DNA of 64,000 nucleotides from assembly GCA_002796345.1 (NCBI GenBank), contig PCXC01000039.1, positions 4 through 64,003 of the forward strand. Reading direction: 5' to 3'. The first letter of the stretch is position 1; each line of letters starts with the position of its first letter. Below are positions 24,604-25,545 of the stretch, piece after piece. Source of the stretch: Deltaproteobacteria bacterium CG11_big_fil_rev_8_21_14_0_20_42_23 (lineage in GTDB: Bacteria; UBA10199; 2-02-FULL-44-16). Below the pieces are notes generated by a model. The model saw only the letters and a program-made list of their open reading frames with translations. It did not search any database and was not told the DNA's origin. The position numbers and the translations under genes are program-made.

Positions 24604-24620
24604 TGGCATGTTTTCTGCAT
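24604..24620 (+). promoter_or_regulatory. Sigma-54 (RpoN) -24/-12 promoter candidate upstream of the sigma-28 gene
   Basis: TGGCATgttttCTGCAT has GG-N10-GC spacing and matches TGGCAC-N5-TTGCA. It lies 35 bp upstream of ATG 24655, which has a GAGGGGG RBS. Confidence 0.45.
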
Positions 24621-24654
24621 TTTTGTTCTGCGTACGAATTCATGAGGGGGTAGC

Positions 24655-25545
24655 ATGGCAAAAGTAGCCACAAAGAAGAAAGAAAAGGCTGAAAAGTCCG
24701 AGCGCGTGGCAAGAGCGAGGCAGAGCGCACACTCAAAAGTGAAAACAGCCCGAAGCAACAGTGCTGTGAAACAGAGTGAGCTTTCGAAAAAAGACTTGGC
24801 AGAAATGAAGCAGCGAAATGATCTTATCGATCAGTACATGCCGTACGCTGCATCTATTGCGAATCGAGTTTGTCAGACGCTTTCTTCCGCGGTTGAATTT
24901 GATGAAGTGCTTTGCAACGCAAGACTTGGTTTGTTGGAAGCCGCAAAACGTTTTGATCCAGAGCAAGGTGTAGATTTTAGAACCTTTGCTTATTACCGCA
25001 TCAAAGGTGCAATTTATGATGGACTTAGACGAAGTGGTTGGTTGCCGCGGACTTTATATTCGAAAATTAAATTTGAAGAAGCCGCAAACGAATACATGCA
25101 GAATCGCGCGCTTCACGTGGATGAAGAAAAAGTAAAAGAACTTCCTCCCGGTTATGAAAAGAAAGATGCAGCACGAGAAACCATTGGCGGACTTACTTCG
25201 ATGTACATTGTTTCCATCGATGCATCAGAAGATTTAGAAATTGTAGATGAAAATTCCGAAGACATGGAAAGTAAAGCTGAGTTTATGCAGGTAAGACGGC
25301 ACATGCGAGATTCCATCGGAAGCTTACCTGAAAAGGAAAAACAACTGGTGATGATGTATTATTTTCAAAGTAAAACGCTCGAAGAAATTGGTGATAAGTT
25401 GGGTCTTTCAAAATCATGGACCTCTCGCTTACACGCACGAGCATTGGCTTTATTGTTCAAGCGCATCAAACAAAAAGCGCATACAAATAGAGATGCTGAT
25501 AATGAAGGGGTAGAGGAGCTTGGCGATGTCAATTACGATTGCTAA
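24655..25545 (+). CDS. fliA: Sigma-70 family RNA polymerase sigma factor, sigma-28/FliA-WhiG group, with a Lys/Arg-rich N-terminal extension of about 50 aa
   Basis: Region 2 FRTFAYYRIKGAIYD and region 4.2 TLEEIGDKLGLSKSWTSRLHARAL. An N-terminal KKKEKAEKSERVARARQ tract precedes the conserved core. Confidence 0.75.
   Translation: MAKVATKKKEKAEKSERVARARQSAHSKVKTARSNSAVKQSELSKKDLAEMKQRNDLIDQYMPYAASIANRVCQTLSSAVEFDEVLCNARLGLLEAAKRFDPEQGVDFRTFAYYRIKGAIYDGLRRSGWLPRTLYSKIKFEEAANEYMQNRALHVDEEKVKELPPGYEKKDAARETIGGLTSMYIVSIDASEDLEIVDENSEDMESKAEFMQVRRHMRDSIGSLPEKEKQLVMMYYFQSKTLEEIGDKLGLSKSWTSRLHARALALLFKRIKQKAHTNRDADNEGVEELGDVNYDC

Follow-up and report, generated by a model that had tools for sequence, protein, structure and literature searches.

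Gene content of the secretion locus

In the window, by which we mean the whole 64-kb stretch of DNA analyzed, a T3SS core operon is headed by a gene for a group-3 sigma factor (24655–25545, + strand). The product has 296 aa, its N-terminal extension being basic, and Pfam recognized Sigma70_r2 and Sigma70_r4 in it. TIGR02479 (FliA_WhiG) was its best NCBIfam match; the score of 133.6 bits does not reach the cut-off of 189.6, and all equivalog models fell far below their own cut-offs; because the score lies under the curated TIGR02479 cut-off, we call the product FliA/WhiG-like and not FliA. The best PDB matches were WhiG (6pfv, 1e-28) and then FliA (9wsf, 6pmi and 1rp3). The initial annotation had described the gene as fliA-like, which agrees with the presence of group-3 regions 2 and 4 and with WhiG and FliA as the closest solved relatives. 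More than 1600 homologues were found, and those in the 80 related loci examined always head the same T3SS cluster.

The rest of the operon (25526–34307, + strand; defined by Pfam, gaps and synteny) encodes, in order, a protein of 166 aa of no known family with a rod-like C-terminus, a FliG-like protein, SctL/FliH, the SctN ATPase, SctO, an SctP/FliK-like protein, a FliM-like protein, FliN/SctQ-C, FliO, SctR, SctS and SctT. From 24655 to 34307 there are thus 13 same-strand genes separated by gaps of –20 to +54 nt, with three overlapping junctions, and this synteny was retained in 80 out of 80 related loci. A translationally coupled operon running through sctT had been claimed for these genes; the operon itself is plausible, whereas coupling would apply at some junctions only. 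The ORF following the sigma gene (25520–26026) was considered as a possible anti-sigma factor; it matched no family and a PDB profile search was empty, and the C-terminus of its product may resemble inner-rod (SctI) proteins. Among the small ORFs of the cluster, none matched FlgM or another anti-sigma family, even with the threshold relaxed to E ≤ 5, and a divergent anti-sigma partner of the in-cluster sigma factor may exist.

Upstream of the sigma gene lie genes for a TPR (LcrH-like) chaperone and the SctJ inner-ring lipoprotein (22116–23517, + strand; Pfam, NCBIfam), for which no promoter of their own was identified. Downstream of sctT, a second operon (34503–37947, + strand; Pfam) encodes a protein of 386 aa of no known family, a TPR protein, a protein of 302 aa of no known family and another TPR protein, a pairing that resembles substrate/chaperone pairs. 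The same four genes come after sctT in three further contigs (L087–L089).

Convergent with this second operon are two genes on the – strand. The first (38151–39587; Pfam, NCBIfam) encodes a sigma-54 enhancer-binding protein with FHA, AAA+ and HTH_8 domains, whose true start is probably M18, at 39536. Its Sigma54_activat domain was detected by Pfam at E = 5e-69, and its sigma-54 contact loop reads GSFTGA, i.e. an intact loop of the GAFTGA type. Among the matches listed there were 119 homologues from other sources, 67–77% identical, and the loop in all 120 listed activator proteins was GSFTGA in 66 and GAFTGA in 54. The second gene (39553–42213; Pfam, with its position conserved in L087–L089) encodes a Ser/Thr protein kinase with six PEGA domains, presumed to act as the sensor and to phosphorylate a partner of the activator's FHA domain. 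In all three contigs that were looked up (L087–L089), whose in-cluster sigma factors are ~60–65% identical to that of the window, the activator orthologue is convergent with the second operon and is preceded by the kinase. Judged by this gene order, the kinase and the FHA-domain sigma-54 activator (38151–42213) belong to the conserved content of the locus. In four other loci (L021, L023, L026 and L064), another sigma-54 activator, of the response-regulator type, is encoded divergently beside the sigma gene. About 25 loci gave tblastn matches to the enhancer-binding protein ~2 kb upstream of the small-protein gene; these were rejected as activators because only the FHA domain matched, and they represent proteins of ~700–750 aa (FHA-PEGA-TPR in L041), not AAA+ activators.

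By its gene content, the apparatus is probably related to the basal non-flagellar T3SS of the Myxococcales type. Myxo-type systems are defined by SctJ, L, N, Q, R, S and T plus a rod protein, by the absence of a secretin, a recognizable SctF and flagellar rod, hook and motor genes, and by a gene order in common with Myxococcales loci (Abby and Rocha 2012); the gene content of the window and its synteny with Archangium fit this description, as assessed from gene content and gene order. As in the 'Myxo' T3SS and the T3SS* of M. xanthus (PMC3459982, PMC12403147, PMC12075869), FliO is present and the window holds neither a secretin nor a recognizable needle gene. The gene order shared with Archangium loci is sigma, rod-like protein, SctJ, SctL, N, O, FliM-like, FliN and SctRST. 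SctC, SctV, SctU and SctD are absent from the window and may lie elsewhere; in L041, SctV is adjacent to the FHA-PEGA protein. Myxo systems have been described as lacking FliG, whereas the window contains a weakly FliG-like protein (FliG_C, E = 5e-9). Unlike that of the Myxo systems, the host lineage is uncultured (MAGs labelled Deltaproteobacteria or UBA10199) and has a G+C content of ~42%. The host of the window itself is an uncultured groundwater MAG.

Sigma-54 motifs and the upstream dyad

A sigma-54-type –24/–12 motif, P1 (TGGCATgttttCTGCA), precedes the sigma gene at 24604–24619 on the + strand, identified by its motif and by conservation in orthologous loci. The interval reads TGGCATGTTTTCTGCA, with GG at 24605–6 and GC at 24617–8, so that the GG-N10-GC spacing is exact for sigma-54. 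The motif had been reported at this place in the initial annotation, and we located it 34 nt before the ATG at 24655, counting the motif through T24620; a GAGGGGG ribosome-binding site occupies 24644–50, and the transcription start is predicted at about 24629–24631. Rfam and tRNA scans of the window returned no matches, so the stretch from P1 to the ATG contains no known leader RNA. A second motif, P2 (TGGCATtggcaTTGCA; 34436–34451, + strand; motif and conservation), has the same spacing (GG at 34437–8, GC at 34449–50) and precedes the operon downstream of sctT. The two largest intergenic gaps of the cluster hold these elements, each of which faces the genes downstream.

We then compared the orthologous loci. 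Testable loci were those with a sigma factor at least 48% identical and with enough upstream DNA, and a match was counted at a score of at least 5/7 within ~330 nt upstream of the sigma gene. A TGGCAY-N5-NTGCA element was present just 5΄ of the orthologous sigma gene in 59 out of 61 testable loci from other genomes, against ~2.5 expected. Outside TGGCA and TGCA the P1 sequence is not conserved, the spacer and flanks varying freely, and the consensus of the window's P1 with the 59 loci is TGGCAtg..t.cTGCA. Against the extended consensus TGGCAC-N5-TTGCW, P1 agrees at 5/7 and P2 at 6/7 of the non-invariant positions; the –12 element of P1 is CTGCA, not TTGCA. P2 is conserved after sctT in 11 loci (L011, L014, L015, L016, L018, L019, L023, L026, L064, L065 and L067) and also in L087–L089. 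In more distant homologous clusters (Acidobacteriota, Archangium), unlike in the window, no sigma-54 motif was found before the sigma gene.

Upstream of P1, a dyad (TGGGGAGTGAAATCCCCA) followed by T8 spans 24473–24498 on the + strand (hairpin 24473–24490). It is a candidate enhancer (UAS) at P1 and possibly also a terminator of the upstream operon. The initial annotation had taken a terminator at 24470–24497 to isolate P1 from the upstream genes. A hairpin with a T8 run is indeed there; that it is an isolating terminator, or only that, is probably not the case. Within the window, a plain intrinsic terminator of the upstream operon with no role at P1 would account for the 6-bp G+C-rich stem followed by T8, which the terminator scan called, and for its location 33 nt after the upstream stop codon. 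Across loci, however, the GGGG-N5-10-CCCC dyad and the –24 element downstream of it are 121.5 ± 8.3 nt apart (27 P1/P2 promoters), whereas the interval from the preceding stop codon to the dyad varies far more, at 77 ± 97 nt. Furthermore, a T-run follows in only 2 out of 27 copies, being absent from the other 25, and a dyad precedes P2 as well (TGGGGTCTTTTTTCCCCA; 34317–34334, + strand; 117 nt upstream of P2; a candidate enhancer from dyad comparison across loci). We consider the terminator-only explanation unlikely, while still granting it an appreciable share. Because the dyad holds a fixed distance to the –24 element and a variable one to the stop codon, rarely carries a T-run and also precedes P2, it is more likely the activator's enhancer than a terminator. 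Enhancer and terminator roles of the 24473–24498 dyad are not mutually exclusive in the window.

Dyads were present at 29 out of 59 P1 sites and 9 out of 15 P2 sites, compared with 4.6% of random 200-nt windows. Between the dyad and P2, a sequence match to the IHF consensus (TATCAATTACTTA) lies at 34387–34399 on the – strand. The pattern WATCAANNNNTTR occurred 38–63 nt upstream of the –24 element in 9 out of 15 P2 and 8 out of 59 P1 regions, compared with 1.5% of random windows; in other words, IHF-consensus sites are enriched mainly at P2.

Proposed tier-2 promoters and their candidate target genes

A second promoter type, GCAACTT-N14-GCCGATAA, combines sigma-28 geometry with a sigma-28 –10 element, and we refer to its occurrences as tier-2 promoters. 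The first (GCAACTTtgtgtaagcgcttcaCCGATAAT; 21428–21457, + strand; weight matrix 28.3 bits) was found before 20 out of 20 detected orthologues of the downstream gene. That gene (21484–22023, + strand) encodes a protein of 179 aa with 57 homologues, none of which has a Pfam domain. The N-terminal part of the product is disordered and Gly/Ser-rich and its C-terminal helix is conserved; in the AlphaFold model only one long helix, 123–178, is confident, and in several loci the gene is followed by a hairpin and T-run. Regarding a possible needle subunit, a PDB profile search with this product was empty, and hhalign against five needle sequences aligned the expected stretch, but with E = 0.09 and a probability of 0.6%.

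The second tier-2 promoter (aCAACTCagctatgcgaaaagaCGATAAT; 23565–23593, + strand; 16.7 bits) was found before 22 out of 26 detected orthologues and precedes genes for two small proteins of no known function (23631/23643–24086 and 24097–24441, together 23631–24441 on the + strand), directly upstream of P1. The third (GCAACTTtggctaaggtacgGCCGATAA; 61124–61151, + strand; 26.6 bits) lies outside the cluster. The gene 3΄ of it (61177–62118, + strand) encodes an Ala/Gln/Glu-rich coiled-coil protein of 313 aa of no known family, which is a candidate secreted substrate.

The pattern CAACT-N14-17-CGATAA occurred four times in the window compared with 0.09 expected. The weight-matrix scan of the window gave three matches, each on the + strand and immediately preceding an ORF, compared with a total of one match in 20 shuffles. 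The fourth CAACT...CGATAA occurrence (46594–46621, – strand, inside an ABC-transporter gene) fell under the matrix threshold and was treated as chance. In 80 related loci the motif was found 104 times on the gene strand versus seven times on the opposite strand, at conserved slots; the consensus is acGCAACTTtgg...gCCGATAATa, with a CAACT-CGATA spacer of 17 nt in 38 out of 41 sites. The search for sigma-28-type –10 elements suggested in the initial annotation yielded conserved promoters with a CCGATAAT –10 before three other genes.

The sigma-28 promoter of P. aeruginosa fliC is TCTAAAG-N14-GCCGATAA (PMC12784957). The tier-2 –10 element and the 7-N14-8 geometry are equal to those of sigma-28 promoters (PMC12784957), whereas GCAACTT is unlike the –35 elements known for sigma-28. 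Because of this –35 difference, and because the in-cluster sigma factor lies below the family cut-off, the tier-2 promoters are assigned to that factor by association only. It is conceivable that P1 is real and that a canonical flagellar FliA encoded elsewhere reads the tier-2 promoters, the in-cluster sigma factor having another regulon. The ordinary sigma-28 –10 and spacing and the score under the FliA/WhiG cut-off would fit this, and the analysis covers the 64-kb window, with the rest of the genome outside its view. On the other hand, GCAACTT is unlike sigma-28 –35 elements, and the motif occupies fixed slots inside the sigma gene's own cluster in dozens of genomes. Moreover, a related motif, CAACTC-N15-GCGATA, accompanies a sigma homologue in 7 out of 9 Archangium clusters, and in one clade the post-sctT operon has the tier-2 motif where the window's clade has P2, so that the two promoter types are linked to a single regulon. 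A flagellar FliA encoded elsewhere has a low probability as the reader of these promoters, and recognition by the in-cluster sigma factor remains the preferred assignment.

The proposed cascade and its relation to known systems

The identity of P1 was further considered in the light of the tier-2 promoters. The conserved TGGCA-N6-TGCA element could be the site of another regulator and not a sigma-54 promoter, the operon being read by the housekeeping sigma factor or by transcription that starts at the tier-2 promoter at 23565 and reads through, in other words by autoregulation. That promoter points in the same direction ~1 kb upstream of P1, and the hairpin in between has no T-run in most loci, so that read-through is possible. 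Yet the element is asymmetric, lies always on the coding strand and retains an exact GG-N10-GC despite its variable spacer, as sigma-54 predicts; the same element recurs at P2, and the locus carries its own sigma-54 activator, which is of one of two types depending on the lineage. In addition, a promoter scan of 23500–25500 found no sigma-70-type promoter. Read-through from 23565 may add to the output of P1, but it leaves the motif unexplained, and we regard a site for another regulator as improbable. A chance match is virtually refuted by conservation: within the window, TGGCAYN5YTGCW gave two matches against 0.68 expected and at least two in 12 out of 100 shuffles, window-only statistics that are weak evidence for the sigma-54 motif, whereas the motif background of 0.11 per kb per strand, or ~0.04 per locus, contrasts with the 59 out of 61 loci that carry P1. 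Judged by sequence comparison, P1 is in all likelihood a real, evolutionarily conserved sigma-54 promoter. The rpoN gene is absent from the 64-kb window, which covers most of a contig of ~69 kb; its presence in the genome is implied by two proteins in the window with sigma-54-interaction domains, i.e. sigma-54-dependent activators.

Sequence and comparison establish which motifs and genes the locus holds, how far the motifs are conserved, where they lie and with what strand bias, and that the kinase and activator are linked to the locus; these findings suggest the following two-tier model. At P1, sigma-54 would transcribe the sigma gene together with the T3SS core operon, and at P2 the next four genes. 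Opening of sigma-54 promoters requires an ATPase activator, and the most likely candidate at P1 and P2 is the FHA-AAA+-HTH protein, whose gene lies at the end of the locus and which the adjacent PEGA-domain Ser/Thr kinase would switch. The activator may bind the TGGGG-N7-CCCCA dyad ~120 nt upstream of each promoter as its putative enhancer, with an IHF-type bend in between. The in-cluster sigma factor would then direct RNA polymerase to GCAACTT-N14-GCCGATAA, and the tier-2 output would comprise the probably extracellular Gly/Ser-rich protein (21484), the two small proteins (23631–24441) and the 61177 coiled-coil protein. In view of the promoter layout, this order would mirror the flagellar passage from class II to class III, with the machine first and the exported parts second. 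We consider the full model, with sigma-54 at P1 and P2, the FHA activator at the dyad and the in-cluster sigma factor reading the tier-2 promoters, to be probable. A two-tier cascade had already been read from the sequence in the initial annotation, and this reading gained support from the conservation of P1, the second conserved sigma-54 promoter, the in-locus kinase and FHA activator and the sigma-28-type promoters.

Individual parts of this circuit have counterparts elsewhere. Signalling of the Myxococcus type from a Ser/Thr kinase to an FHA-domain enhancer-binding protein was reportedly the subject of work by Jelsbak, Givskov and Kaiser in PNAS in 2005. As in those kinase/FHA systems, an FHA domain is fused here to a sigma-54 AAA+ activator encoded beside a eukaryote-like kinase; unlike those systems, which control development, the pair here is a fixed component of a T3SS locus. 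Flagellar hierarchies leading from RpoN to FliA are known from Vibrio, Pseudomonas, Campylobacter and Helicobacter. There, sigma-54 drives basal-body and export genes plus fliA, and sigma-28, with its GCCGATAA –10, drives late exported parts; the layout proposed here is similar, and the locus keeps FliG-, FliM-, FliN- and FliO-like proteins. In contrast to flagella, the window lacks rod, hook, filament and motor genes and encodes an SctJ-type lipoprotein inner ring, SctO and LcrH-like chaperones. It also differs from flagellar hierarchies in that no FlgM was found, in its –35 element and in an FHA-type activator in place of the response regulators FleQ, FlrA and FlgR.

In Chlamydia, sigma-54 acts with the NtrC-type activator CtcC on T3SS effector genes, while the sigma-28 target hctB rises indirectly, and a FliA-type sigma factor coexists with a non-flagellar T3SS (PMC7482065), both of which are reminiscent of the present locus. 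However, that study does not describe the chlamydial sigma-28 gene as directly controlled by sigma-54, the gene is not the first of a T3SS core operon, and the activator is a response regulator without a DNA-binding domain (PMC7482065).

The closest precedent for the logic is the Hrp system. In Pseudomonas syringae, sigma-54 with HrpR/HrpS drives the sigma factor HrpL, which in turn drives the Hrp T3SS (PMC5263251). Like the Hrp loci of Pseudomonas syringae and Erwinia (PMC5263251), the window has a sigma-54 promoter leading to an alternative sigma gene inside a non-flagellar T3SS locus, as well as enhancer-binding proteins encoded in the locus, a UAS and an IHF site, the latter two being predicted here. 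In both cases the sigma factor would act on a conserved promoter motif, which serves T3SS and substrate genes in Hrp (PMC5263251) and putatively the tier-2 genes here. In contrast, HrpL is an ECF (group 4) factor that recognizes the hrp box, whereas the sigma factor here is group 3 and FliA/WhiG-like, with a sigma-28-type motif; because of these two differences, the locus falls outside the Hrp-type cascades, though it would work alike. Furthermore, hrpL is expressed alone and HrpL drives the whole apparatus, whereas the sigma gene here would be co-transcribed with the core and tier 2 would cover only a few non-core genes. The input is also different, with HrpV/HrpG in Hrp and a Ser/Thr kinase plus FHA domain here.

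The initial annotation had called such logic over a secretion locus unusual. Given the HrpR/HrpS to HrpL precedent (PMC5263251), this applies less to the logic as such; what is new with respect to Hrp is the group-3 FliA/WhiG-like sigma factor, the kinase/FHA input and the basal T3SS lineage. Passage from sigma-54 through a sigma factor to a T3SS is, in short, already known from HrpR/S and HrpL, and what appears here is a flagellum-style two-step circuit on a non-flagellar system. A literature search for sigma factor or sigma-54 control in Myxo-type T3SSs or UBA10199 found none, which is not proof of novelty, and no description of a sigma gene or of the regulation of Myxo systems was found in the searchable literature.

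The flagellum is regarded as the ancestor of non-flagellar T3SSs, among which the Myxococcales-type systems, with largely obscure function and regulation, branch first. For this branch, conservation in dozens of genomes points to a complete, testable circuit, which takes its input from a kinase and an FHA-type activator and comprises two sigma-54 promoters for the machine, one of which would also drive the dedicated FliA-like sigma factor, and the well-defined tier-2 motif. Tentatively, and with somewhat less than even confidence, we propose that the basal T3SS lineage (UBA10199-like, Acidobacteriota, Myxococcota) kept the ancestral flagellar transcription hierarchy at exaptation, i.e. a sigma-54 'class II' operon containing a FliA-like sigma gene, sigma-28-type 'class III' promoters for exported parts and maybe a secreted anti-sigma checkpoint. 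If this is the case, GCAACTT-N14-GCCGATAA would provide a computational handle on the substrates of 'needleless' systems, including relatives of the T3SS* of predatory M. xanthus. Retention of a FliA-like sigma gene alongside FliG-, FliM- and FliO-like genes is relevant to the question of how regulation moved with the machine from flagellum to injectisome. The tier-2 motif can be searched genome-wide for candidate substrates, and the gene at 61177–62118 is already one such candidate outside the cluster.

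Gene content of the cluster and promoter P1

The gene that heads the cluster starts at position 24655 on the + strand and encodes a 296-codon sigma factor in which sigma-70 regions 2 and 4 were found. Its top NCBIfam model was FliA/WhiG (133.6 bits, below the cut-off of 189.6), and its closest solved relatives were WhiG and FliA. The protein begins MAK, and its Lys/Arg-rich N-terminal extension of ~50 residues (24655–24810) is mostly kept in 14 aligned homologues; the solved FliA chains that match it are shorter (239–254 residues).

Twelve genes follow on the same strand, separated by gaps of –20 to +54 nt. 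They encode an uncharacterised 166-aa protein, a weak FliG-like protein, SctL/FliH, the SctN ATPase, YscO-like and FliK/SctP-like proteins, a FliM-like protein, FliN, FliO, FliP (SctR), FliQ (SctS) and FliR (SctT). Upstream of the sigma gene lie genes for a TPR (LcrH-like) protein, an SctJ lipoprotein and four small proteins of no recognised family, and sctT is followed by four genes (uncharacterised, TPR, uncharacterised, TPR). On the opposite strand, the locus encodes a sigma-54 activator of FHA-AAA+-HTH_8 architecture together with a Ser/Thr kinase carrying six PEGA domains. Flagellar genes for rod, hook, filament and motor are absent from the window, as are SctV, SctU, SctC and SctD. The window, from an uncultured groundwater bacterium, has a G+C content of ~42%. 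The FliG-like (26035–27042; FliG_C, E = 5e-9) and FliM-like (30507–31421) genes of this non-flagellar T3SS cluster gave weak but specific matches, and their products may be relics of a flagellar C-ring. In the divergent relative L041, genes for SctV (FHIPEP), a double-FHA protein and a large TPR protein lie directly upstream in the cluster (L041:10–6229), along with one for a 722-aa FHA-PEGA-TPR protein, whose PEGA domain is common to the kinase in the window.

The initial annotation had placed a sigma-54 motif upstream of the fliA-like gene, and this motif is indeed present: promoter P1, TGGCATGTTTTCTGCA, occupies 24604–24619 on the + strand, with exactly ten bases between GG and GC. It is followed by a ribosome-binding site (GAGGGGG, 24644–50) and the ATG at 24655. 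The pattern TGGCAYN5YTGCW occurs twice in the window (0.68 expected), a number without significance by itself. Homologues of the sigma protein number more than 1600, and scanning one genome per species with this protein yielded 80 loci, all with the same T3SS gene order headed by a sigma gene. Matches with 48–69% identity came from metagenome-assembled genomes labelled Deltaproteobacteria, UBA10199 or 'bacterium'; two at 71–75% were both cut by contig ends, and the sigma proteins of the Acidobacteriota and Archangium loci were 39–43% identical. For the 61 loci with a sigma protein at least 48% identical and enough upstream DNA, we searched for GG-N10-GC with at least 5 of the 7 remaining consensus positions. 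Such an element was present in 59 of the 61 loci, within ~330 nt upstream of the sigma gene and always on the coding strand; the background in the same loci was 0.11 per kb per strand, or ~0.04 per upstream region. The consensus was TGGCAtg..t.cTGCA, and the five spacer bases and all surroundings varied between loci. This asymmetric, strand-specific and exactly spaced pattern is what a sigma-54 promoter should leave, and few other elements would produce it. No sigma-70-type promoter was predicted within 23500–25500, and the P1 leader matched no Rfam family. The sole testable loci without the motif 5΄ of the sigma gene were L029 and L057; in L029, a sigma-54 motif instead lies 3΄ of the sigma gene (at 10975), ahead of the next ORF.

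Promoter P2, sigma-54 activators and the upstream dyad

The second TGGCAYN5YTGCW match, P2 (TGGCATTGGCATTGCA, 34436–34451), falls in the one further intergenic gap of appreciable size in the cluster and is oriented toward the four-gene operon 3΄ of sctT. P2 is kept in 11 related loci (L011, L014, L015, L016, L018, L019, L023, L026, L064, L065 and L067) and in three more contigs (L087–L089).

The FHA activator carries the sigma-54 contact loop GSFTGA and shares 67–77% identity with 119 listed homologues from other sources; all 120 listed proteins have GSFTGA or GAFTGA. We compared gene order around three activator orthologues, all from long contigs that encode an in-cluster sigma ~60–65% identical to that of the window. 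In all three, the order was an uncharacterised 208–214-aa protein, PEGA kinase and FHA activator, and this block was convergent with sctT and the four-gene P2 operon; the kinase–activator pair accordingly belongs to the locus. Another clade (L021, L023, L026 and L064) instead has a response-regulator-type sigma-54 activator, divergent from and adjoining the sigma gene. The input module is exchangeable, with promoter type constant. A second activator of the FHA-FHA type with a GAFTGA loop (62214–63827, – strand) also indicates that the genome uses sigma-54; rpoN is not within the 64-kb window.

The hairpin TGGGGAGTGAAATCCCCA followed by T8 at 24473–24498 had been described as a terminator isolating P1. 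Both hairpin and T8 are present, and the assigned role required correction. A dyad of the form tGGGGt-N5-7-aCCCCa precedes 29 of 59 P1 and 9 of 15 P2 promoters, compared with 4.6% of random 200-nt windows; in the window it is found at 24473–24490 (P1) and 34317–34334 (P2). Distances to the promoter were tightly clustered: for the 27 copies of the main cluster, the dyad lay 121.5 ± 8.3 nt from the –24 element, compared with 77 ± 97 nt from the preceding stop codon, and a T-run followed in only 2 of 27. In addition, IHF-consensus sites occur 38–63 nt 5΄ of the –24 element in 9 of 15 P2 and 8 of 59 P1 regions (random windows, 1.5%), including 34387–34399 at P2 of the window. Because this layout corresponds to the textbook sigma-54 architecture of a UAS near –130, a bend site and –24/–12 elements, as described for hrpL (PMC5263251), the dyad is probably an enhancer. 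Given its T8 run, the P1 dyad of the window may also terminate the upstream operon.

Tier-2 promoters and their targets

A search for sigma-28-type –10 elements, suggested by the initial annotation, revealed a conserved motif 5΄ of orthologues of the cluster genes at 21484 and 23631. Genes with this motif, presumably read by the in-cluster sigma, are referred to as tier 2. The consensus is acGCAACTTtgg...gCCGATAATa, with CAACT and CGATA separated by 17 nt in 38 of 41 sites. Its geometry is heptamer-N14-octamer, the octamer being the sigma-28 –10 element GCCGATAA. The P. aeruginosa fliC promoter, TCTAAAG-N14-GCCGATAA (PMC12784957), has the same geometry and the same –10 octamer; its –35 sequence differs.

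CAACT-N14-17-CGATAA occurs four times in the window against 0.09 expected. A weight matrix trained on other genomes only detected three + strand sites, each directly 5΄ of an ORF: 21426 (28.3 bits), 61122 (26.6 bits) and 23563 (16.7 bits). Shuffling the window twenty times gave one match in total. Across the 80 loci, the pattern appeared 104 times on the gene strand versus 7 times on the other. In the divergent clade L030–L052, the tier-2 motif follows sctT in place of P2 (e.g. L041:19578, L044:19648), which ties both promoter types to one regulon; promoter type has been swapped between lineages for the same post-sctT operon. A related element, CAACTC-N15-GCGATA, lies alongside the sigma homologue in 7 of 9 Archangium loci, which are too closely related to count as independent support. 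The two tier-2 promoters of one locus (L021:3289 and L021:5409) are identical over 27 nt (CAACTTTGGGCCCCAAGCCTGCCGATA), suggesting recent promoter duplication or conversion.

For the 21484 protein (179 aa), 57 homologues were retrieved, all of them without a Pfam domain, and in several loci a hairpin and T-run follow its orthologue. Its AlphaFold model (mean pLDDT 56.7) was confident only for a long conserved C-terminal helix (residues 121–180, pLDDT 71–88). This C-terminus looked needle-like by eye; hhalign against five needle sequences returned a probability of 0.6% (E = 0.09), and PDB profile searches gave no match. The target of site 61122 lies outside the cluster: ORF 61177–62118 encodes a 313-aa Ala/Gln/Glu-rich protein of no family and is convergent with the second activator gene. 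Family searches of the small ORFs of the cluster recognised no anti-sigma factor. In the region 20928–20977, a sigma-70-like promoter, TTGCTT-N17-TACAGT, ends just 6 nt before the ATG of a small conserved gene that starts at 20975 and encodes a 100-aa protein of no family, and several orthologues have TTGCAC-N17-TGcTATCTT in the same position. This arrangement points to housekeeping control of a leaderless mRNA amid an otherwise sigma-54/sigma-28-like cluster.

Proposed circuit and related systems

The two-tier cascade over a T3SS locus, as initially proposed, is backed by strong comparative evidence, and is extended by P2, the kinase–activator pair, the probable enhancer dyad and a tier-2 promoter with three targets. 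From the motifs, conservation and linkage observed, we infer the following protein–protein and protein–DNA steps. The PEGA kinase would sense a signal that, judging from domain logic known from Myxococcus, the FHA domain of the activator would read. The dyad-bound activator would then remodel the sigma-54 holoenzyme at P1 and P2; P1 would give the sigma factor as well as sorting platform, ATPase and export gate, and the newly made sigma would transcribe the tier-2 genes. For the T3SS lineage that is least understood, such a circuit provides a regulatory map open to testing and a means of finding substrates.

This logic had been regarded as unusual, which must be revised: in the P. syringae Hrp system, the closest working analogue, sigma-54 with HrpR/HrpS activates hrpL, and HrpL acts on hrp-box promoters (PMC5263251). 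The system described here is not of the Hrp family, because its sigma belongs to group 3 rather than ECF. By descent, the 'Myxo' basal T3SS (PMC3459982) and the flagellar RpoN–FliA hierarchies are probably its closest relatives. Myxo systems, to which the predatory T3SS* of M. xanthus belongs (PMC12075869), carry FliO (PMC12403147), as does this cluster; however, they are described as lacking FliG, whereas a weak FliG-like protein is encoded here. T3SS effectors of Chlamydia are controlled by sigma-54/CtcC, which raises a sigma-28 target only indirectly (PMC7482065). In the searchable literature, we found no FliA-like sigma heading a Myxo-type T3SS, no sigma-54 control of such a system and no description of the tier-2 motif.

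Elsewhere in the window, a 1101-aa protein (7084–10389, – strand) combines a region resembling GH123 glycoside hydrolases with a proline/acidic repeat, whose match to the trypanosome PARP model is one of low complexity. A MlaE/MlaF/MlaD-like transporter (45354–47763) lies 5΄ of a three-gene PrkA/DUF444/SpoVR operon (47802–52568), a conserved stress and starvation module.
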